Translations under genes and position numbers: made by a program
Notes under the pieces: generated by a model
What the model saw: the letters and a program-made list of their open reading frames with translations, nothing else
Database searches by the model: none
What the model was told of the DNA's origin: nothing
From: a virus
Lineage: Duplodnaviria; Caudoviricetes
DNA length: 64,000 nucleotides
Virus record (IMG/VR): IMGVR_UViG_2882238243_000002
Span: 1 to 64,000 of that record
Strand: one strand, 5' to 3'
Part shown: piece by piece, positions 3,760 to 50,043 of the stretch
Position numbering within the stretch: the stretch's first letter is position 1
How the letters are laid out: each line of letters starts with the position of its first letter

Positions 3760-3852
3760 GATTGTTTCCTTTCTGCTCTTTTGAGCATAAAAATAAGACC
3801 GATTAAGGTCTTTGCTGTTACTTAGTTAAAGTGTGGATTACTATCTATGCGA

Positions 3853-6102
3853 TTACGCTACAAAGAAATGTCCACTTATAAAGAAATACGGATTTGAAAT
3901 AGTTGCCCCTATCGCTATATAAATTTTACCGTCTGCGTCAATATAAGCACTTGATGAACCAACACTTCCTCCGTTTCCATTTGCGTCGGAGTTTGATGCC
4001 AGATATGTGTTTCTAATTGGTTTTTCTGAAGATGTAGCGACATGATAATATGCCCCCGCTGCAAAGGAACCCCCATTAAACTTAATTGCTAATGACACGT
4101 CGCAACGTTTATTAACTTTGTGCAACGACGCTAAATTTGAGTCTACTATGCAATTTGTATTTGGTGTTATCGTGAACGAATTATCAGCTAAAGTCTCCTT
4201 TATGTCGTCAATTTCACCTTGAATAACTGGACCCATATCTGCACCAAGTACCATATCAGTGTTGGTCGTTAACAGATTGTGAACTATATTTGCTTTATCA
4301 ATTTTCTCATCAATTTTTCTATCAGTCATCCAAAACCTTGACTTAAAATCTACAGTCGGTATTACGCTATCGGCTGAAGTTACTATAGTATTATTTCCCT
4401 CATAGATATCAAGTTCTATCGGCTCTGAAAAGCTTGCTGGAATATATGCACCATTAACCTCTTGCTCATCTGACAATAGACTTAAAGACACTGCAAACGT
4501 GATCTCCTCAGTTAATATTGCGTTTGGCGAAACGTTTATTGATAACTTTGCTCCTGACGGACTATCGACAGGGTTTGTAAATTCAACCCGATTATATGGT
4601 ACACCCTCCATCACATTTGCCGCTTCTTCAAAAACGCCGCTACTATTAAGTAACCATAGCGTAAATGATATATCCCCATTACCTGTATTACTTCCTGATA
4701 TAGTAGGTGCCTTAAAGACAAAATCAGTACCTGCTTCAATAGGGTCAATATCGAGCAAAATAGAAATATCTTTATTTACTGATGTAGGCTTAAGTGTGAT
4801 AAAGTTTGTGCGTTCATTAGCTTTAAAATAAGTACCGTTGATATCACTTGAGAGATATAAATAGTCGGTGCCTTTTTTAACTTTAATATAAGCCCCCTCC
4901 GTATTTCCAGTAACTTTTGTTACGATTGCCTTTCCTTCAGAAGGACTCTCATAAGTGAACAAGGAAGCAGTTACTTTATATTCTGTATCTGAAAATTTAT
5001 CAGCCAATCTTAAAAGTGCAGACTTGATACTCTTGAATAAGTTTTTCAATGAAGAACCAGAAATAATTGTTTTGAGCGAAGTCGAAAGACTTGGAGCCGA
5101 TGAAGTTGTACTGTAATCTTCAAACTGTATTGGAGTATCTGCCGTAACATCTTGTAATATCTCCCAATCATTATTTTCATTACTTGGTTCAGATGTAGTT
5201 GATGATACTTTACAATACCAATATGCACCATTGTGAATAACCCAATCATTCAACACATAAGTACCAACAACCCAATGTCCTCTAGGTACTAGTCCGATTC
5301 CGATACCTTGAACGCCCTGTGGTATTTTAAAGTCTAATACTTGATTATATGATGTCCCCGAATTTGTTACAGTAGCCTGTGTGCCAGGCTCGCCAGTTGT
5401 AACAGTTCCAATTTCAACTGTAGTTGATGGTAAATCAAAGTCAAAGACTGCGTGCTGTGGATCGTCCGAAGTATTTACAACAGTTGCCATATTGTAATCA
5501 ACGACACTTACATTTCCAACGTCAGCGGTAGCAGTAAAATAACCCTCTGAAATCTTAGTTTCAGTGTCTTCAATAAGATTTTCCATTTCTGTAATTTTTT
5601 CTTCTGCATCTGCCGTAATCACATCGGCTTTGTTTAGGGCATTGTAGAAAAAAGTAAAATCATCTGTACTCATGATTTCACCTATAGCTGAATCATTAAC
5701 TCTAATTTTAAAAATACAAGTAGTTATCGCTACCTCTACGTTGGTGTTTGTATCGGGATCTAATTCTTCTTTTGTTAATGTTATTTGAGCAGTACAATCA
5801 CCGACTGACTGACACATTTGGTCTGTAATTGGCATCGCTATGTAGTTATAATGTTCCTCTAATTCATCACCAAAAACAGTCTGTTTATTAAAAGCCAATG
5901 TCCCATCTGGTTTTTTAAAAATTAAATAAGCAGTCATATTGTCGGGGATGACATACGTCTTACCATATTGTTTTAATCCTACCCACAAAAGGCGAGAGTT
6001 TTGTTCGCCTTGATTTACAGAATACAAAATTTTATCTGAACTTCTGTCTAAATCGACCTGAATAGTATCTTGCTTTGCATATTGACTTATATCTAATGCC
6101 AC
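3853..6102 (-). CDS. BppU-family baseplate/tail fibre (receptor-binding) protein
   Basis: N-terminal QGEQNSR..KKPDG (BppU/DUF2479-like); VTTGEPGTQATVTNSG..LDFKIPQG repeat; gp53/RBP-like C-terminus. Confidence 0.8.
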   Translation of the reverse strand: MALDISQYAKQDTIQVDLDRSSDKILYSVNQGEQNSRLLWVGLKQYGKTYVIPDNMTAYLIFKKPDGTLAFNKQTVFGDELEEHYNYIAMPITDQMCQSVGDCTAQITLTKEELDPDTNTNVEVAITTCIFKIRVNDSAIGEIMSTDDFTFFYNALNKADVITADAEEKITEMENLIEDTETKISEGYFTATADVGNVSVVDYNMATVVNTSDDPQHAVFDFDLPSTTVEIGTVTTGEPGTQATVTNSGTSYNQVLDFKIPQGVQGIGIGLVPRGHWVVGTYVLNDWVIHNGAYWYCKVSSTTSEPSNENNDWEILQDVTADTPIQFEDYSTTSSAPSLSTSLKTIISGSSLKNLFKSIKSALLRLADKFSDTEYKVTASLFTYESPSEGKAIVTKVTGNTEGAYIKVKKGTDYLYLSSDINGTYFKANERTNFITLKPTSVNKDISILLDIDPIEAGTDFVFKAPTISGSNTGNGDISFTLWLLNSSGVFEEAANVMEGVPYNRVEFTNPVDSPSGAKLSINVSPNAILTEEITFAVSLSLLSDEQEVNGAYIPASFSEPIELDIYEGNNTIVTSADSVIPTVDFKSRFWMTDRKIDEKIDKANIVHNLLTTNTDMVLGADMGPVIQGEIDDIKETLADNSFTITPNTNCIVDSNLASLHKVNKRCDVSLAIKFNGGSFAAGAYYHVATSSEKPIRNTYLASNSDANGNGGSVGSSSAYIDADGKIYIAIGATISNPYFFISGHFFVA

Positions 6103-14306: not shown

Positions 14307-17300
14307 TCAGGAACCACTCTTTTTTAAAGAATAGTTCAAAGTCTTGAATGTTTTATTAATCTGAGCTGTGACGACCGACTTTATTTCATTTAAATTAGAG
14401 TCGCTTACACTTCCTTCAATATTGACCAAATTTCCAATCTGTACAGTTTTACTTGAGGAATTTGTTGTTACATTTGGAGCAGAAGATAGAATATTACTGG
14501 ACAACGTATTACCAAATAAAGAACTAGGACTAATATCCCAATCTGCCAATCTAAAAAGATTATCAGTTTGTTTTTTAGTGAGGACTTGGTCTCCCTCCTC
14601 CATTATTCTCCATTTTCCGGACTGTGCCTTACCCAGAATTAATTCTGCGCCTTCTTCATCGACATTAGCTAGTCCAGCTTTTGCACTTCGAGTTCCGTTT
14701 TTATAAGCTGATACAGAAACGGTTTTCCCTTTTGTTTTGGCATAACTTGTAGCAATTTTCTGTGCATATGCTTCAGCTTCGGCTTTAGAGGAGAACTGTT
14801 TAATTACAGTCCCACTGCTGTCAACAACTTGGTATCCATTTACTTTGCTCGAACTTCCACCACTTGAAGAACTACCAGAGCCACTAGAACTAGAAGAACT
14901 ACCGCTTGATGCATCAGGGATGTCAGCAGTACCAACACTCTGACTATTTAAAGCATTTAAAATACTTGTAGCTGCCTTATCAGCAGATGCGGCGATATCA
15001 TCAATCGCATCTTTTACATTATTTAGTTCGCCTACAAATGCGCTTGAAGCACTCGAAAGAGTTTCACCATAACTAGCAATAGCACTCTCTCCTTGTGTCC
15101 AAGGGTTCATAATTGCATCAGATACAGTGAGATTATATTCGCTTGCTAATCCGTTCAATGTCGAATATACAGTTTCATAGTTTGCTTGAACTAAAGCCAA
15201 AGAAGTAGAAATTAATAATTCTTCATTTTTTAGACTTGCTTCCAATGTGTCAATTTCGGACTGCTTTGTTTCTTTGTATTTCTTTAATTCAGCATCTAAC
15301 GCATCAACTGCCGCATCATAAGCATTATCATGATAGGTATCATCTAAGTCTGATTGAGCATCAGCCAACTCTGCTTCAAGTTTTCTACGTTTTGCCACTC
15401 CAGAAACACTAGTATCTCCAGACAAAGCATCAATTTTACTTTGTATCGTATCAACGTTATCTTGTTGTTCATTTAGCTTTTTCTGTAATTGATATTCTTC
15501 TTCAGCAACTTCTAATGCTTCTTTTCTCTTTTCGATTAACTCTTCATAAGCATCTATTTCATCTTCAATTATAGATTTGGCAGCTTCCACACGTTCTTTA
15601 TTTAATTCGATTATTGCCTGACGTTCTTCTTCAGCAGCATTTACCGCTTCAAGTTGGGCAGCCTTTAATTCATTGAGCTTCTCCATATATTCCGTTGTGG
15701 AATATTTACCCTTGCGATAATCCTTTTCTAAATCGTCGATAGCTTTTGCATATTGTTGTGCCTTGTAGGTACTTGTTTCATACTGTTGAGCCAAAAGTGC
15801 AAGAGAAGTAATACCTGCGTCAGACCAACTTCCGTCCTCATTAGTCATGGACTTATTGTCGAGCAAATCCATTAGTCCGTCAATTTCATTTGATATATTG
15901 TCAATCTGATCCGTCAACAATTCGAACTTTTCCCATTTGAGATCATTAATTGCATTTTGAAATTCTTCAATCTCAATGGTACACTGCATGATTTCGTCTT
16001 TGGTGTCTTCGATACCCTGAGTTAATTTATACCAATTTTCATCATACTTATTAATTGTACCATTAGCTAATCCGTCATCTAATAACTTTTGATACTCGGA
16101 GATTTTCTTATTTAAAAGAGACATCTCTTTATTTGATTCAGATATTAACTCTTTATACAACTTAGACGATACTAAATTGCCTTTTGTTTCTTCAAGTTTA
16201 AGAGCATTTTGAATTTTCTCTAAACGGTCAGTTAGAAGAGTAGACATCTTATCGTAATCAGACTCTAATTTAGAAATTGCATCAGCCAGTTCTTCAACGG
16301 CCGTCTTAGCTTCTTTAGCTGCCTTTTCTGCATCCTTTAAGTTATCAGCCAATGCATCTGCCGTTTTTGCGCCACCTGAATAGTCAATAGAAGGAGCCGA
16401 ATTTGATAATGAAGTCGTTGATTTTAATGCACTATCTAAAGCGGCTTGTGCCTCTGATAAAGCATTTTTCTTCATTATCTCCATATCTGCTTGGCTTGTT
16501 CCGCCCATTCCAATCTGACCGGATTTAGCAGCATTATAAATGCCAATAGCGGTAGTAGCTCCACCGAGTGCTGCAACAAGAGCTTGCAGATTTTGAATGT
16601 CAGAGGCCGTGCCTAAGACATTTTCACTAGCTAATTCTTTTTGTAATGCATAAATATAAAGAGCTTTAGCTGTTTCACCCGTAATCTTTTCTTCATTTAT
16701 TAATGCCTGAACCTCTTGATATGTAATATTCGCAAGGTCAATGCCACGCTGAGCGGCAATAGCTTTAAGTTGAGCATATTGGTCGATTGTTAATCCTAAT
16801 TGTGAATAGACATATTCCTCTGCATTGACAACACCCATTTCTTGTAGTGCCTGAACTACAAAGTCAGCTGTAGCTAAGGTCAAGTTATCCATTGCGCCAC
16901 TGTTATTGATGTATTCTGTAGTTAAATCACTAAATGCTTGTTGTACTTCTTCAGCAGTAGAAGCAGTATTGGATATAACAGAGGCAAAATTTTCAAATCC
17001 ATCTAGTTCACCAAAAACTTCGTTGAGAGAAGTTAAATCAGAGAAATCTATTTTGTCATCGTTTGATATGATTTTTGCACGGGCTTCATCTAGCTTTGTC
17101 ATTCCATCTGAAATTTTAGACAGCGAATCGATTGCATCAGAAGTATTTAAATCTCCAATACGGTTTGATGTTTCTAAAATTTGATCTGCAATAGCGGTTA
17201 TACTGTCAGTTAATTCAGTAGGAGCAGAAGTACCTAAAGTTTGTAATAATGCCTTTAATTCGTTGCTTATGAGTTGTTTTATTGCACCTTGTAGATTATC

Positions 17301-19130
17301 AGTTTCACCGGAAAGTGTTGGAAATTCTTGAATTAAATCTACCAAGTCTGAGTCTGAAAAATCACCAGATTTCAAACTTTCTAAAGTCGTAGAAAGTGAA
17401 GATACTTTTGACTGAAAATTATCTATTGCGGTTGACTGGTCATCGGTGAGAGAGAATGAAATTGGGTTTTCATTTGACGATGTGTTTTTTACACTTTCAT
17501 ACATATTTACAGCTTGTGCAGCACTTTCTGCACCATCTGTTACATCATTCCAATAATCGACCTCTTCACGAGTATTTATTGAATTTTCTTTAAAATAAAC
17601 ATCTAAATCTACAGTACTCGTGTTATCTTTGAACTTATTAATAGCACTTTTATAGTCAGCTACTAAAGTGTCAGTATCTTCAAAGCCTAAAGCGATTTTT
17701 AATTGGAGCTTTCCTTCTTCACCAAGATTAAGAGCATTTGCAATTTCTGTTAAAATAACATCAATTTTTTGCTGAATTTCTTCTGGTGATAACGTAGTTG
17801 CATCAAGATCTAAATTAAATAACTCATTAAACGCATCATTAACTCCATCTTTGTTGTCTTTCAGCGAAGAGATAAGGCTATTTACAAAGTTTTGCATACC
17901 TTCTTCTGTATCTAAATTATTAGTATCAACAAAAGCTGGAGTAATTCCATTTAACAATGTTTGAAAGTATGTTTGTAGTTCTGAATCTAATCCCCAGTAA
18001 TTGTCAGACATTTTTCCGTATGTGATAGCAGTAGAAGCAATTTGAGCCATCTGTGTGTCTATATCAGTCTGTAACCCCTGTAAGTCTGTTTTAATATTTT
18101 GACGAACAGTTTCAATTTCTTGGTCTGTGCTATCTTTATCTAGTCCATATTGCCTTAATATATTGCCTAATATAGAATTATTTTCTTCAACACTTCCTTC
18201 AGAATAATGAAGATATCGTTTTGTAGATAATCCTACTAAATCTAAATTACTTAACTTGGATAACTGTTCAAGAAAATCAAGCTGTTGATTTCTGGAAACT
18301 TTTGTATCATAATAATTTGCAAGTAACTTCCAATCATATGATGGCATTGAAGAAGCTGACTTGGAGTTCTTATAATTATCAAATATTGATTCAACGTCAC
18401 CGTCGTTGTATGTTTTTATTGCCTCGTTTTGCTTGTATTTTTCATATTCGGCATTTAAGTCAGCTAAATTTCCTTTGACAGTTAGTATTGCATTTCCTTG
18501 ATCATCATAGCCCTTTACTAAATCAGGTATAATACTGGCAACCTGATTACAAATATCTTGATAGCGAGAATATTCGTCGGTCGTTAATGATACATTTTCT
18601 CCAAGTCTATTTACTCCATCTGAAAGAGCCTTATATTCATCATTAAGTTCAGAAATAGTAGAAGAGTTTGAATTTTGATTTTCTTTTAAATCATTAAAAG
18701 TATTTGTTAGTTCTTCTGCATTTTTCCTTGCTATATTTGCTTGATTTGCAAAGTTATACAGTCCCTCAACAACTTTTGAAACGACGATAGCTATCGCCAT
18801 CCCGGCTATCATATTACCTGCAAGTGCAAGCCCCTTTAATGCCACTGTACTTGCTTTAGTAGCTACAGTTGTTTGTTCAATAGAAGCTCTAAATCCTTTT
18901 TCTGTTAGCTCACCAGCTTTAGCTGTCTTAGCATAATTTACAACTGAACTGTCAACTTCTCCGTAAGTTTCAGATAAAGCCTCTGCACTTAATCCGGTTT
19001 CCATCATTTTTTTTCTGAACGCTGTAAATTGAGGAATTAAATCATCTACATTTTTTTGTACACTCTTTAACGAATTTATCCACGTTTTTATTCCAGTTAC
19101 ACTTTTTGTAGTATCATTATATTTGAATAT
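14307..19130 (-). CDS. Tape measure protein, exon 2
   Basis: Long helical/coiled-coil ORF ending YKNGT..A.VDEEGAELI (typical tape-measure C-terminus), directly upstream of Dit; no SD before the TTG at 19133. Confidence 0.88.
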   Translation of the reverse strand: MFKYNDTTKSVTGIKTWINSLKSVQKNVDDLIPQFTAFRKKMMETGLSAEALSETYGEVDSSVVNYAKTAKAGELTEKGFRASIEQTTVATKASTVALKGLALAGNMIAGMAIAIVVSKVVEGLYNFANQANIARKNAEELTNTFNDLKENQNSNSSTISELNDEYKALSDGVNRLGENVSLTTDEYSRYQDICNQVASIIPDLVKGYDDQGNAILTVKGNLADLNAEYEKYKQNEAIKTYNDGDVESIFDNYKNSKSASSMPSYDWKLLANYYDTKVSRNQQLDFLEQLSKLSNLDLVGLSTKRYLHYSEGSVEENNSILGNILRQYGLDKDSTDQEIETVRQNIKTDLQGLQTDIDTQMAQIASTAITYGKMSDNYWGLDSELQTYFQTLLNGITPAFVDTNNLDTEEGMQNFVNSLISSLKDNKDGVNDAFNELFNLDLDATTLSPEEIQQKIDVILTEIANALNLGEEGKLQLKIALGFEDTDTLVADYKSAINKFKDNTSTVDLDVYFKENSINTREEVDYWNDVTDGAESAAQAVNMYESVKNTSSNENPISFSLTDDQSTAIDNFQSKVSSLSTTLESLKSGDFSDSDLVDLIQEFPTLSGETDNLQGAIKQLISNELKALLQTLGTSAPTELTDSITAIADQILETSNRIGDLNTSDAIDSLSKISDGMTKLDEARAKIISNDDKIDFSDLTSLNEVFGELDGFENFASVISNTASTAEEVQQAFSDLTTEYINNSGAMDNLTLATADFVVQALQEMGVVNAEEYVYSQLGLTIDQYAQLKAIAAQRGIDLANITYQEVQALINEEKITGETAKALYIYALQKELASENVLGTASDIQNLQALVAALGGATTAIGIYNAAKSGQIGMGGTSQADMEIMKKNALSEAQAALDSALKSTTSLSNSAPSIDYSGGAKTADALADNLKDAEKAAKEAKTAVEELADAISKLESDYDKMSTLLTDRLEKIQNALKLEETKGNLVSSKLYKELISESNKEMSLLNKKISEYQKLLDDGLANGTINKYDENWYKLTQGIEDTKDEIMQCTIEIEEFQNAINDLKWEKFELLTDQIDNISNEIDGLMDLLDNKSMTNEDGSWSDAGITSLALLAQQYETSTYKAQQYAKAIDDLEKDYRKGKYSTTEYMEKLNELKAAQLEAVNAAEEERQAIIELNKERVEAAKSIIEDEIDAYEELIEKRKEALEVAEEEYQLQKKLNEQQDNVDTIQSKIDALSGDTSVSGVAKRRKLEAELADAQSDLDDTYHDNAYDAAVDALDAELKKYKETKQSEIDTLEASLKNEELLISTSLALVQANYETVYSTLNGLASEYNLTVSDAIMNPWTQGESAIASYGETLSSASSAFVGELNNVKDAIDDIAASADKAATSILNALNSQSVGTADIPDASSGSSSSSSGSGSSSSGGSSSKVNGYQVVDSSGTVIKQFSSKAEAEAYAQKIATSYAKTKGKTVSVSAYKNGTRSAKAGLANVDEEGAELILGKAQSGKWRIMEEGDQVLTKKQTDNLFRLADWDISPSSLFGNTLSSNILSSAPNVTTNSSSKTVQIGNLVNIEGSVSDSNLNEIKSVVTAQINKTFKTLNYSLKKSGS

Positions 19131-19203
19131 CAAATTTGCTTGGAGGCACTATATAATATTTTTTTATTTTATGATACAATATAAAAAAAGTAGGGGGATT
19201 TTT

Positions 19204-19617
19204 ATGAGCGATATATATTTATGTACTAAATGTGGGTATTTTAAATTCTTTTTCAAAAAACCAGAAAGTTGCAATATTTGTGATGGTGATGTTGTCGAAA
19301 TCACAACTCTAGATGACTACACTTTTGCACACATGACCGACACTGAAAAAGAGCAATTCGCAATCAACTATGTAGGTCACGATTTTGATCCCGTACTTAA
19401 AAATAAACGTATAGATTATGATGCAAATAGGAGAGCAGAGATACGAGAAAATTCTAATAAATTTGAAGCAACACATCCTGAATGTCCTTATTGTCACGGA
19501 AGAGACACTAAGAAAATTACAACAACTGCAAAAGCAATAAATACAGTTGTGTTTGGATTACTAGGAACCAAAAGACATAAACAATTTCATTGTAATAATT
19601 GTAAGAGTGATTTTTAA
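19204..19617 (+). CDS. Double Zn-ribbon hypothetical protein (intron cargo, antisense)
   Basis: CTKC..CNIC and CPYC..CNNC; AGGGGG RBS before ATG 19204. Confidence 0.75.
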   Translation: MSDIYLCTKCGYFKFFFKKPESCNICDGDVVEITTLDDYTFAHMTDTEKEQFAINYVGHDFDPVLKNKRIDYDANRRAEIRENSNKFEATHPECPYCHGRDTKKITTTAKAINTVVFGLLGTKRHKQFHCNNCKSDF

Positions 19618-19723
19618 ATATTTTTATTTATCGGCAATGAAGTAATTTATATTTTCACATTAAAATAAGATAAAAAATGAACTTCAACCGAGAATGAACT
19701 GAGTTATCATATTTTTGCATATA

Positions 19724-19756
19724 AAAAGCACCTTCAATTAAATGAGGTGCTTAAAA
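19724..19756. terminator. Bidirectional terminator between convergent cargo genes
   Basis: AAAAAGCACCT-tcaattaaatg-AGGTGCTTAAAAA. Confidence 0.75.
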
Positions 19757-19766
19757 ATTTATGTAT

Positions 19767-20267
19767 TTAGTTTTGTTCTTCTGTTGCAGCTACTTGGGCT
19801 TTTATGTCATAATTTAAATATATCGATTCTAATAATTTGAAATCACAACATGCATAATTGAGTTTATGATTTTTGTTACATCCTATTTTATATACAGATG
19901 TAGCCTTTTTGTAGATTTCATCCTTATGTTTTAAACAATACATATATTCCGAATACAACAAGTCTGCATATTTTTGATCTTGTTTCGCAATCTCTTTAAA
20001 TTTTTTTTCGACTAGCACGTTGTCATACGCTGGTATCATAAAAGAAAATTTTATCGTTGAGATGACTTTGTCATCTTGAAAAATTTGTAAGTTTGTTTGT
20101 TGTTTATTTGTAATATGAGAAATGGGAGCATAATAAGCTATCCCATTACATTTAAATACAACTCCACAGACAAATTTATTATTGGTTGAGTATTCTATAT
20201 TTGGCACTTTCTTATCAAATTTTTGCAGATATTTAACATAATCTTTATCAATATCGTAAAATTTCAT
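19767..20267 (-). CDS. toxN: Type III TA toxin, ToxN/AbiQ family endoribonuclease
   Basis: MKFYDIDKDYVKYLQKFDKKVPNIEY..KFVCGVV..YYAPISH..IKFSFMIP..CCDFKLLE; downstream of a repeat array and terminator. Confidence 0.9.
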   Translation of the reverse strand: MKFYDIDKDYVKYLQKFDKKVPNIEYSTNNKFVCGVVFKCNGIAYYAPISHITNKQQTNLQIFQDDKVISTIKFSFMIPAYDNVLVEKKFKEIAKQDQKYADLLYSEYMYCLKHKDEIYKKATSVYKIGCNKNHKLNYACCDFKLLESIYLNYDIKAQVAATEEQN

Positions 20268-20289
20268 TATATTCTCCCATATGTACAAT

Positions 20290-20316
20290 AAAAGAGCGAA
20301 GATATTATCCTCGCTC
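20290..20316 (-). terminator. toxI-toxN internal terminator
   Basis: GAGCGAGGA-taata-TCTTCGCTC-TTTT on the minus strand. Confidence 0.85.
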
Positions 20317-20317
20317 C

Positions 20318-20430
20318 GCATTAAGCTTTCACCTTTTCGGTAGTGAGACACCTAGCATTAAATCCTTCTGTCACGGTCGAAGAACACCTCGCATTAAACC
20401 CTAACTTATGGTGCTAGAAACCAAGCATTA
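20318..20430 (-). ncRNA. toxI: ToxI-type antitoxin RNA: three degenerate pseudoknot repeats
   Basis: UAAUGC linker recurs at 34/36/37-nt spacing; each unit has a GGU..ACC stem 1 and a pairing stem 2. Confidence 0.85.
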
Positions 20431-20525
20431 CTTAAATTAAAAATTATATTATAATAGGCATTTGCCCAGTATAAACATTTATTAAACGTTAGATAATTGA
20501 TAACGTTATCACTTCTTGTATGTTT

Positions 20526-20554
20526 ACTATAACACAGTAAAGTAGAATACACAA
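20526..20554 (-). promoter_or_regulatory. Candidate host-RNAP promoter for toxIN
   Basis: TTGTGT-17-TATAGT with extended TG; a second TATAAT at 20448-20453. Confidence 0.5.
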
Positions 20555-21168
20555 TAGTTTTTATGAACAAAAGTTCAATATATTTGTTAAAAAACTGCCC
20601 AAACGGTGAACTACCCACAAGCTAAAGCTAATGGGATTTCTGACGGTTTTCTTGTTAAATTTCATCACTAGATGTACTATTAAAATAATAGAAGAGTAGT
20701 AGAACTCTTTAGAACAATATAAAAATTTGCCTCCAAGCAAGTGGCTAACGACGCCACCACAAAGTAATATCCATAATTCCCTTGTGTTTTGGACTGTATG
20801 TTTTGAGCTAATCAACTTAGCCCAGGATTGTCAGTCTCTGGGGCGTAACCCATTCGTTAATAAACGAGTTGTTCTACGCCTGCTTTCCTCTATAAAATAG
20901 AGTACCTATAGACCCTCCCTTAAACAGAATAAAAATATGGTCTGCCATATGTATATGTCTTTTGAACTTATACAAAATCAATATGTTTTTTCCGGATTTC
21001 TCCACCATTGCCGTATATTTGTTTCCAAATTCCGTTTTGGTATATTGATATAGTGGGGGAGTTCCCAGCATATTCTCCACGTAAAAGTCTGTTATCTTTC
21101 ATTTACTACGTTACACGAACGGTGCTTATAGTAAAGGGCAATTCAAATTATGAAAACTTGAGTGTTTT

Positions 21169-23142
21169 ACCTACGTCTTTTGCTCCTAATATAGAGCCTA
21201 TTCCCGCTCCCAAAGTTCCTAATGGAGTAAGAAAATCTACAATTCCAGTCCCCGCTTTTGTTAAAGCAGTACCAAAATCTATGAAAAAGTTTACTAGTCC
21301 AGAATCGAGCATAGTATTAGCAAATTCAATACCTGCATTCTTCATTTTTTCTAGATGAGCAGTTGTTGATTCCTGATAAGCATTGAATTTATCCATTGCT
21401 TGTCCAGAGGAATTTAATGATGCATCAGTATATCTAAGAGCCGTGTCATAGTTGTTCATCAACACAAGGAAGTTTTCCATGTGGTTTACACCGGCAAAAG
21501 CACTAGCAATTGCTCTTTGCTGAACGTCTGAATAAGTACCCCAATTAGCACCAGTTTCATCTAATACTTCATCAAAATCTCTAAAAGTATCCATAGAATC
21601 TCTTAAAGAAATTCCGACACCTTTAAGAACCGTTTCAACATTACTTAAATCTTCACCTGAGTTCTGATAATCTTTTAATCTTGCTAATTTAATATTACCC
21701 ATTCGTGAAAATACAGCATTAAGTGATGTTCCCACTTCAGACATGCTAGATTGAGTTACTTCACCAACAACTGCAGCATAACCAAGCAACTTGTCCATGC
21801 CTACACCGGCTAAGTTGGCATTATTAGCAACTTGACTCATTGCCTCGGCTAATCCACCTACGTCGGTTGCTGATATCAAGTCGACCGCCGACAATTTATC
21901 TACCACATCTAATGTATCTTTTGCGGCTACATTGTAACCTTTCATTGCACTGGTAAGGTATTTGGTACTATCCGCCGTTGACAATTTTCCGATTTTTGAT
22001 AGTACTATTGCATCTGTAATAAGTGTTTCAGTATCGGCTATACTTTGTCCCTGTTTTAACCATTCAGTACCAGATTCAGTAATGTCAATGACAGTAGCAC
22101 TTAATTTATCTCCTAATTGTGAATATGAATCCATATAAGATTCTATTTGCGTCTTGGAAGCACCAGTAGCCATAGTTAAGTCGGTTATTGCGTCATTAGT
22201 TTCCTTAACTGCTTTTGGGATTTTCTGTATTTGGTAAACTAATCCCATGACGGCAGAACTTACAGATATCCATTGAAGGAAACTATCTCGCGCTTGCGTT
22301 AATTGGTCTTTTACTGAAGCTCCAAGTTTTCCAATGCTTCGCATAGAATTTTCAGCAGTTTTAAAACCATTAACAATTTCGTTAAATTGCATTTTGGTCA
22401 TTTGAGAGTTTAGGGCTCGTAAACTGTCTATATATGCTTGGTTTGCAGCTCTAACAGACTTTGTTGCTCTAGTATTTTTTAGGTTCCACGCTTCAATAGC
22501 ATCAGCCTTACTTAGTCTTTGTTGGTTTGTGACTAATAAGCTATATTCAGAGCGAAGCATAGATAAGTCATTTTTTGTTTCACCAATCGCAGATTGAAGT
22601 TTGTCAAACTGTGCTACAATCGCAATATCATCGCCACTTTCCATAATAGATTTTAGCTGAGTAAACTCAGTATTTACAGACGACATTTTCTTTTCTACAG
22701 TTTCACTAGAAAGCCCAAGTTTAGTAAAACTGTTTGTAATGGTCTGTATTTGCGCAGTAGTGTCTCCGTTGTCACCAACAAGTACTTGAATCTTATCAAG
22801 CTTTTGATTTAATGCATTTTTAGTTCTTTGAGCTGTTTCCTCTGCCTTCTTTGCTGTTTTTTCTAGCTCAGTTTGCAAACGTCTATTGTCACCTATTACC
22901 TGATTTATAGTTTTTTCAATAGTCTTGTCATCAATTTTAATATCAATACCTGTGACCTTTTTCAATTCAGCTTCAAGTTCAGGTAATATTTGTTTAACTG
23001 TTTTTATTAATTCAGCTTTATTTAAGTCAGCAGCTAGATTTAAGTGATATTTATCTAAAACTTTTTGAACTTCTGAGATGTCTGATTTTCCAATTCCACT
23101 TGAATCTAAGACTGCTTGTAGTAGGACTTTAAATTCATCCAT
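21169..23142 (-). CDS. Tape measure protein, exon 1 (TP901-type domain); unspliced ORF runs to 21148
   Basis: EWLKQG..LSKIG..LTSAMKGY..VVDKLSAVD..GLAEAM..VGTSLNAVFSR motifs. Confidence 0.92.
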
Positions 23143-38653: not shown

Positions 38654-38726
38654 CCTGAATAGCAGGGCTTGAACCTGCAACGTCTGGCTCCCAAAACCAG
38701 CGGACTTCCAATTGTCCTATATCCAG
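38654..38726 (-). tRNA. tRNA-Pro(UGG)
   Basis: CTGGATA/TATTCAG acceptor; CTGGT-TTTGGGA-GCCAG anticodon arm; GGTTCAAGCC T arm. Confidence 0.85.
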
Positions 38727-44449: not shown

Positions 44450-44524
44450 TGGGCATAATAGGATTTGAACCTATGACTCATCGCTTAAAAGGCGATTACT
44501 CTAACCAAACTGAGTTATATACCC
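44450..44524 (-). tRNA. tRNA-Lys(UUU)
   Basis: GGGTATA/TATGCCC acceptor; ATCGC-CTTTTAA-GCGAT anticodon arm. Confidence 0.92.
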
Positions 44525-49969: not shown

Positions 49970-50043
49970 TTGGGCATGAGTGATTTGAACACTCGACATC
50001 CTGATCCCAAATCAGGTGCTCTGCCAAACTGAGCCAATGCCCA
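49970..50043 (-). tRNA. tRNA-Pro(UGG), second copy
   Basis: TGGGCAT/ATGCCCA acceptor; CCTGA-TTTGGGA-TCAGG anticodon arm. Confidence 0.88.

Follow-up and report, generated by a model that had tools for sequence, protein, structure and literature searches.

The group I intron of the T4 nrdD (sunY) gene is reported to carry the I-TevII gene downstream of its core and to have a remote 3' splice site. A similar layout is seen in the element considered here, a predicted group I-type intron in the tape-measure gene of a prophage of the Caudoviricetes (Duplodnaviria), which lies within the first 64,000 nucleotides of IMG/VR record IMGVR_UViG_2882238243_000002, the stretch that we analysed and refer to as the window. 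As in T4, the core stands at the 5' end, genes lie 3' of P9 in a peripheral loop, and the 3' terminal segment is returned by base pairing. Unlike the T4 intron, that of the window has as its passenger an AbiQ/ToxN-ToxI cassette and an opposite-strand zinc-ribbon gene instead of a homing endonuclease; among relatives, loops of the window type span 0.5 to 8.3 kb, and the core is not recognised by Rfam. Both sunY and I-TevII are mentioned in a review (PMC3984707). Self-splicing-type introns in prophage tape-measure genes have also been described in the Bacillus cereus group, where the group I introns TMP-IVS1, TMP-IVS2 and TMP-IVS3 resemble the window site in that distinct introns have become adapted to one site, and introns that are related are found at more than one (Tourasse and Kolsto 2008, PMC2504315). 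The accessible sections of that paper present them as small IA1/IA2 introns, mostly without an open reading frame (ORF) or with a homing endonuclease gene, describe no defence cargo for them, and state that group I introns in general range in size from 200 bp to over 1 kb (PMC2504315). Their likeness to the window intron is one of description. Across the literature searched, supplementary files and subscription journals aside, we found no description of ToxIN or another defence cargo inside a group I intron. IStrons, in which a group I ribozyme is fused to IS605-type cargo at its 3' end, share with the window a group I core and a long non-endonuclease cargo before the 3' splice site; in contrast to IStrons, the window intron has no TnpA or TnpB genes, and a long-range helix delimits its cargo, which differs from cassette to cassette.

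What can be discerned about the role of this long-range helix? On the minus strand, UUGCUUGGAGGCA (20740-20728, the 5' arm) is fully complementary to UGCCUCCAAGCAA (19148-19136, the 3' arm), as found by direct reading and by a repeat search; all 13 of 13 positions pair, seven of them as G-C, around a loop of 1579 nt. An earlier note on this DNA had pointed to exactly this 13-bp complementarity, with the 5' arm just past the P9 hairpins and the 3' arm ending four nucleotides before the terminal G, and on each count it read the sequence correctly: the 5' arm begins 0 nt after a hairpin at 20757-20741, and the 3' arm is followed by AUUU (19135-19132), by G19131 and by the exon-2 frame ATA TTC AAA. 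We consider it probable that the helix is the closing stem of a cargo-bearing loop in a group I-type self-splicing intron of a prophage tape-measure gene. Both arms are documented, beyond direct reading and the repeat search, by shuffling, folding and comparison with relatives. The helix itself is an ordinary group I design, with genes placed in a helix-closed peripheral loop. Less ordinary is what it encloses, since the intron of an essential late phage gene holds a complete AbiQ/ToxN-ToxI abortive-infection system, and the homologous loop of a relative, G617, holds a type II restriction-modification system with a controller-like helix-turn-helix (HTH) gene, both systems lying beside a conserved backward zinc-ribbon gene.

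An indication of a function comes from two relatives that diverge from the window to different degrees. In L140, the closer of them, a metagenome contig with a core 86% identical over 456 nt, the 5' arm is the same as in the window and the 3' arm reads GCCUCCAAGCAA, followed by UUUU, the terminal G and then AUUUUUAAAUAU (IFKYSS...). Here 12 of the 13 pairs form, the paired bases being identical to those of the window and the outermost A-U having become A.A. In G617, a genome of the same order with a core 75% identical, the 5' arm UUGCUUGGCGGCA is matched after a loop of 8291 nt by the 3' arm GCCGCCAAGCAA, then UUA, the G and AUAUUCAGAAC, with the exon-2 frame open from the predicted junction. 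Again 12 of 13 pairs form, and one position has changed on both sides, from the window pair A20732-U19144 to C-G. Apart from these differences the arms are invariant across the three loci. Their position is equally constant: 50 nt separate P7 from the 5' arm in all three, and the 3' arm always stands 3-4 nt before the terminal G, while loop lengths span a 16-fold range (L140, 511 nt; window, 1579 nt; G617, 8291 nt). On the loop side of each arm, the adjoining 40 nt agree at 20-27 of 40 positions among the three, about the level of unrelated AT-rich sequence. The hairpin that abuts the 5' arm, P9.1, is itself compensatory (GUGGC/GCCAC in the window, GCGG/CCGC in L140, AUAGG/CCUAU in G617). A stem joining the segment after P9 to the segment before the terminal G is therefore kept while its loop varies. 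The earlier note had named conservation or covariation of the arms in homologues as a check, and its outcome favours the helix. The placement that the note proposed, past the final P9-type hairpin and ahead of the 3' splice site, is supported as well.

Further examples are rare. Of the 127 loci that share a core pattern with the window (see below), L140 alone has a match to the clamp. A pattern built on the arms is found at no fewer than 117 loci in viral contigs among the matches listed, none of these in an intron context, and two further matches in the window's own genome fall into unrelated coding DNA. A second locus of G617, on contig 8 (L189/L190, around 130795), combines a different core with nearly the same P9.1, a 5' arm variant, UUGCCUGGCGGCA, and the cargo start; no partner of UUGCCUGGCGGCA was found there, the contig ending 2.3 kb downstream. 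The window region is present as a single copy in its own genome. BLAST of the region and of one family member against a phage collection returned no match, and similarity searches gave two short, weak matches only among 401 genomes of the family and G617 itself only among 113 genomes of G617's family; an exact 20-mer of the core did not occur in the viral and metagenome contigs.

Could the complementarity be a matter of chance, without function? Perfect inverted repeats of 13 or longer arise somewhere in the AT-rich 2-kb stretch in 144 of 1000 dinucleotide shuffles, so that a length of 13 is by itself unremarkable. However, none of 1000 shuffles provides a perfect partner for the particular 3'-terminal 13-mer, and both arms have been kept at 86% and 75% core identity next to unrelated loop-side flanks, with one of the changes compensatory. 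The divergence of L140 and G617 also argues against their being recent copies of the window element. Taken on this evidence, chance is a very improbable explanation. The minimum-energy fold of a 2100-nt RNA contains all 13 pairs, with pair probabilities of 0.76-0.98, and the duplex energy of the two arms is -23.1 kcal/mol.

We infer that a single precursor RNA runs through the loop and undergoes splicing, with the helix required for use of the 3' splice site. The order along this RNA would be P7, J7/9, the P9 hairpin, the P9.1 hairpin, the 5' arm, the 1579-nt loop, the 3' arm, AUUU, the terminal G and exon 2; the closing stem, placed like a P9.2, would be the final peripheral element of the 3' domain. 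Late transcription would traverse the loop, the core would fold, the arms would pair, and the second splicing step would use G19131. Pairing of the arms would cancel the 1.6-kb distance between the core and the 3' splice site, and the pre-terminal bases (with AAAA of J7/9 as a candidate P9.0), the terminal G and the start of exon 2 (as a candidate P10) could then reach the guanosine site in P7. The sequence between the arms would be looped out and free to vary, making the loop a cargo bay. In the lysogen, the terminators within the loop would probably shield exon 2 from the promoter of the cargo, and lytic growth would require read-through. Should splicing occur, phages could house accessory and defence genes in the interior of a structural gene without any cost in coding, and could exchange them as cassettes.

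The view that the tape-measure gene is interrupted at all rests on the two ORFs that flank the element, both on the minus strand. ORF A (21148-23142, 664 aa) matches PF10145, PhageMin_Tail, with an E-value of 2.5e-24, ORF B (14307-19133) encodes 1608 aa, and the approximately 2 kb between them are without a long sense ORF. Parts like ORF A and ORF B are fused in one open frame, with equal spacing, in the viral contigs L026, L027 and L029, and in two long tape-measure proteins, P0123 and P0126, the ORF A-like tail continues into a SIKTW...NVQ stretch that resembles residues 13-25 of exon 2. At E 0.001 or better, ORF B has 691 homologous proteins; none of the best 120, which we inspected, contains an ORF A-like part, and they open at (M)IFKTF, the exact start point of ORF B (IFKYND). 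Conversely, many homologues of exon 1 terminate at most about 20 codons past a conserved ...K(N/D)(V/I)G, a point at which P0123 and P0126 read on. The clustering of homologue ends behind this motif marks the site as a frequent place of interruption.

The 3' boundary is indicated by a G that directly precedes a conserved ATATTC in 16 of 21 related viral loci; a G also precedes the exon-2 start in the window, L140 and G617. The codon that this G completes is ATG in nine of the viral loci, ACG in six and GCG in one, and TTG in the window; no Shine-Dalgarno sequence or other ribosome-binding site was found upstream of it in the viral loci examined. With ACG and GCG among these codons, the conserved G cannot be explained as part of a start codon, but it can as the terminal G of an intron (omega-G), and on the basis of the related loci we place the 3' splice site between 19131 and 19130. 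ORF B as a gene of its own, starting at TTG or ATG and possibly leaderless, was considered and rejected, with ACG or GCG at that codon in seven loci and no ribosome-binding site.

At the 5' boundary, the exon-1 tails of 14 loci all end in ...KN(V/I)G and then diverge at once, which places the 5' splice site of the window after U21169 and the intron at 21168-19131. Exon 1, as delimited by the ORF call, the PF10145 match and the homologue tails, would cover 23142-21169 and end in ...AKDVG, with GGT (21171-21169) as its last codon; the called ORF continues past this codon for 18 nt of intron sequence before its stop at 21150-21148. The last codon of exon 1 is GGU in L140 and G617 as well. Exon 2, delimited by the ORF call and homologues, would occupy 19130-14307 and start with IFKYNDTTKS.... 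Between them, the junction comparisons and the covarying core helices described below delimit a group I-type intron of 2038 nt, reading from AAAACAC... to ...AUUUG. Its removal joins GGT to ATA in frame, restoring the reading frame seen in the uninterrupted alleles L026, L027, L029, P0123 and P0126. The predicted spliced junction joins ...GACGTAGGT to ATATTCAAA..., the exact residue being deduced from these comparisons.

Does the 5' part of the intron have the features of a group I core? Direct reading and the fold of an extension hairpin suggest a P1 region at 21161-21137, in which GCC (21139-21137) would pair with the exon bases GGU (21171-21169) and place U21169.G21139 at the splice site, followed by an extension formed from UCAAGUU (21161-21155) and AAUUUGA (21149-21143), a hairpin that is present in the RNA fold. 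The layout of P1 is alike in L140 and family members, and exon GGU paired with GCC, with the U.G pair at the 5' exon end, is found in the window, L140, G617 and family members. A candidate P10 of 8 bp could be formed by AUUUGAAU (21148-21141) with AUUCAAAU (19128-19121) of exon 2. Further along, GGA (21078-21076), the 5' strand of P3, pairs with UCC (20827-20825) in a fixed-register test. The fold and RNAalifold delineate a compact block at 20836-20792, consisting of the P7 5' strand GACUG (20836-20832), the P3 3' strand UCC, P8 (GGGCUAA/UUAGCUC, 20823-20817/20811-20805) and the P7 3' strand CAGUC (20796-20792). Next come J7/9 (AAAA, 20790-20787), which could pair with the UUU before the terminal G as P9.0, the P9 hairpin (20786-20758) and the P9.1 hairpin (20757-20741, GUGGC/GCCAC), these being supported by folding against shuffles: together the two hairpins reach -15.2 kcal/mol (z -3.2), and one of 200 shuffles folds equally well.

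These assignments gain from comparison with a larger set of loci. A two-block pattern derived from the P7 region of the window (CAGAGACTGACA, a gap of 20-50, ACAGTCC) occurs in 95 metagenome and 32 viral loci (L056-L182) and marks a family of group I-type cores that is widespread among phage and metagenome contigs. When 22 pattern-matching loci were aligned with the window, RNAalifold returned 26 consensus pairs, 15 of them with compensatory changes, which span a P5-like hairpin, a GGG/CCC helix, P7, P8 and P9; compensatory changes are many in P8, and P9 covaries too. P3 was tested in one fixed register, comparing the bases before GAAUAUGCUGG with those after GACUGACAA, and its inner three positions pair in 9 of 10 distinct sequence combinations, with A-U/G-C, C-G/G-C/U.G and C-G/A-U/G-C as the types of pairs seen. 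P7 is compensatory among the intron types at the tape-measure site (GACUG/CAGUC, GAGUC/GACUC, GACUA/UAGUC, GAGUG/CAUUC). As in the group I pseudoknot, P3 crosses P7, and P8 separates P3' from P7'. Between the P3 5' strand and P7 lies a large structured domain with several covarying helices, one of which reads AUCAAUAU/AUAUUGAU in the window and ACCAAUAC/GUAUUGGU in L140.

A number of observations weigh against the closing stem of a group I-type intron. Within the large domain just mentioned, labels for P4, P5 and P6 could not be assigned with confidence. P1 contains just three exon base pairs, to which the intron-side extension helix is added, and the 8-bp P10 candidate is not conserved in L140. 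The Rfam group I model RF00028 gives no match in the window at its gathering score or in 18900-21400 at E-values up to 10, none in 11 loci of other intron types and none in 13 related loci, and a genome-wide Rfam search finds no group I match at the intron locus. With Rfam silent, the case for the intron therefore rests on comparison, by which we judge the element to be a group I-type intron of a family outside the curated Rfam model. Being invisible to Rfam, introns of this family are likely to be annotated as 'split' tape-measure genes. A further point concerns other introns at the same site, which have a local hairpin in place of the long-range helix: in their tails, a covarying stem with a conserved UCAAACA loop lies 10-25 nt before the terminal ...AAUAGUAUG. 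A long-range partner for it is ambiguous. A GUUUGA/UCAAAC match to the loop of this tail hairpin recurs, but no better than with shuffled tails, and alternative partners exist; an unrestricted duplex search for long-range partners in these types was uninformative.

The sample also has to be kept in mind, as it consists of three complete examples with one compensatory pair. A two-sided change is equally expected of an inverted repeat maintained at the DNA level by concerted evolution, and the helix has no G.U pair that would discriminate RNA from DNA. The arms could accordingly be the ends of a small mobile cassette, or sites of a recombinase or regulator around the zinc-ribbon gene and the neighbouring insert, and their fit as RNA would then be incidental. 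They do bracket variable DNA exactly, and cargo is exchanged between introns, as cores and tails mix and the two G617 loci with different cores have a common cargo start. However, the 511-nt L140 loop encodes neither a transposase nor a recombinase, the zinc-ribbon protein shows no match to a family of that sort, and no target-site duplication is seen at the arms in the three loci compared. Moreover, the fixed spacing, with 0 nt after P9.1, 3-4 nt before the terminal G and 50 nt from P7 to the arm, is what an RNA helix needs and is unexpected for an insertion. We thus regard a DNA-level repeat as quite unlikely, and favour the arms as the two strands of an RNA closing stem.

A last difficulty lies in the loop, where at least two good same-strand intrinsic terminators could block a continuous precursor unless they are read through. 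This raises the alternative, put forward in the earlier note, of a split intron, in which exon 1, the core and the 5' arm would belong to one RNA and the 3' arm, the terminal G and exon 2 to another, the helix joining the halves for trans-splicing. Two such RNAs could originate from a stop at the loop terminators and a restart inside the loop, or from cutting of the loop, for example at the ToxI repeats, which are a substrate of the nuclease ToxN. In favour of this model, the loop has a promoter-like site of its own and a ToxI-type endoribonuclease substrate, in addition to two strong terminators and a weak third hairpin on the same strand; the 8.3-kb loop of G617 holds several transcription units; and a duplex of -23 kcal/mol would suffice to keep two RNAs together. 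Natural trans-spliced group I introns are known from the mitochondrial cox1 genes of placozoans and lycophytes, and they splice, as the bimolecular model would have it, with halves held by a peripheral helix. Their halves, however, stand at separate places or on different strands, whereas at the DNA level those of the window are not separate transcription units but collinear, on one strand and 1.6 kb apart. Upstream of the 3' arm no convincing sense promoter was found, the 9-of-12 matches at 19618-19589 being no more than shuffles give. L140, in addition, has the same helix around a 511-nt loop without a same-strand gene; its presence in this cargo-poor intron indicates that the helix predates the cargo and needs no trans function. 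The proposal of a split, trans-splicing intron thus found no support, and we consider it unlikely.

A related idea is that, thanks to the helix, splicing does not depend on an intact loop; the intron would be facultatively bimolecular, and the tape-measure mRNA could be joined even after a stop at the terminators and a restart, or after a cut by ToxN at the ToxI repeats. We hold this to be doubtful, too. If true, such tolerance of a broken loop would explain how entire defence systems can be harboured there safely, the loop of one relative reaching 8.3 kb. A closing stem that acts within one continuous RNA remains the reading that we prefer.

What, then, does the loop of the window carry? Its larger part is an AbiQ/ToxN-ToxI cassette on the minus strand (20475-19767), recognised by its PF13958 and AbiQ matches, its repeats and its terminator. 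The cassette opens with a promoter-like site (20475-20448, from a promoter scan), followed by ToxI-like repeats from about 20405 to 20330, in which a repeat search detects two 19-nt cores, 36 nt apart, at 20402-20348. The number of repeats is small, approximately 2.5 by eye, and TRF reported no array in this region. Next is a terminator (20317-20293; -15.2 kcal/mol, z -4.1), the sole loop hairpin listed by the terminator scan, and then the toxN/abiQ gene (20267-19767; PF13958, E 2.1e-35; AbiQ, E 8.8e-29). A ToxN-family endoribonuclease that follows tandem antitoxin repeats and a terminator is the arrangement of a type III toxin-antitoxin system. Behind toxN lies a second hairpin of the intrinsic-terminator type (19752-19726), which is followed by UUUUU and has -12.6 kcal/mol at z -3.75, with none of 200 shuffles folding equally well. 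A third hairpin on the same strand (20710-20683), 17 nt past the 5' arm, is weak: combined with a hairpin next to it, it has an energy of -6.9 kcal/mol (z -1.6), which 13 of 200 shuffles match. Of the three terminator-like hairpins of the earlier note, two are therefore strong, and the third is not. Similarly, its cargo of 1.6 kb is bounded by the helix as proposed, but it is better described as a ToxIN cassette beside an older zinc-ribbon gene.

This second gene (19204-19617) lies on the plus strand and encodes a double zinc-ribbon protein of 137 aa, defined by alignment, with eight invariant Cys and a hydrophobic FGxFG segment; profile searches gave no family above cut-off for it. An opposite-strand zinc-ribbon gene stands beside the 3' end in every intron type that we examined at the tape-measure site, and genes of this kind near intron 3' ends are found in L140 (1710-2129), L013 (5168-5728, minus strand), L028 (4980-5627, minus strand) and L187 (8476-8880 and 7562-8023, both minus strand). 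In L140 it is the sole content of the loop, as an ORF of 140 aa, and neither a gene nor a strong terminator is apparent on the strand of the intron. Set against L140, the window appears to contain that intron plus an insertion of roughly 1.05 kb of ToxIN, which separates the 5' arm from the zinc-ribbon gene's end. The loop of G617 (L187, that is G617:C7, 677-8968) holds an HTH gene, a type II methyltransferase (E 9.7e-121), a type II restriction enzyme (E 3.9e-75), other unassigned ORFs and two zinc-ribbon genes. At cassette borders, after hairpins, a motif TACTACTCTTCTA recurs, at 20700-20683 in the window and near 1510, 1975 and 5155 in L013. Its reverse complement, TAGAAGAGTAGTA, is found on the plus strand of the weak hairpin and in the region of the zinc-ribbon stop codon in L013. 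The motif may be a scar of cassette exchange. A remnant of zinc-ribbon coding sequence was not found beside the weak hairpin, the 13-nt motif alone being common with L013.

Exchange is also apparent among the other introns of the tape-measure site. In addition to the window type, at least five other 5' core types occur there, with intervening sequences of 3.4 to 7.9 kb. Among loci L035-L054, cores and 3' tails are mixed, the core type of L044 being joined to the tail of L043 and the core type of L047 to the tail of L042, which points to recombination inside the introns. In 6 of 14 loci, all of one intron type (L035, L037, L044, L047, L049 and L054), the last exon base is C, the codon being GGC. 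A C in this place is unusual for a group I 5' splice site, and the true site may be shifted. In L049, moreover, the exon-1-like part itself is split by about 3.2 kb (3-596 and 3794-4012), a hint of another intervening sequence. Among viral relatives, the one closest to exon 1, with 67-69% identity, is found in L007 (4560-5150), where it is followed by a different group I-like sequence (...AAGGTATAGTC...); exon 2 was not found within 4 kb of it. In L020, the intervening sequence contains a skipping-rope RNA (RF02924, 76 bits) at 4491-4571. Elsewhere in the window, Rfam identifies four tRNA genes, at 359-431, 38654-38726, 44450-44524 and 49970-50043, with scores of 57-73 bits.

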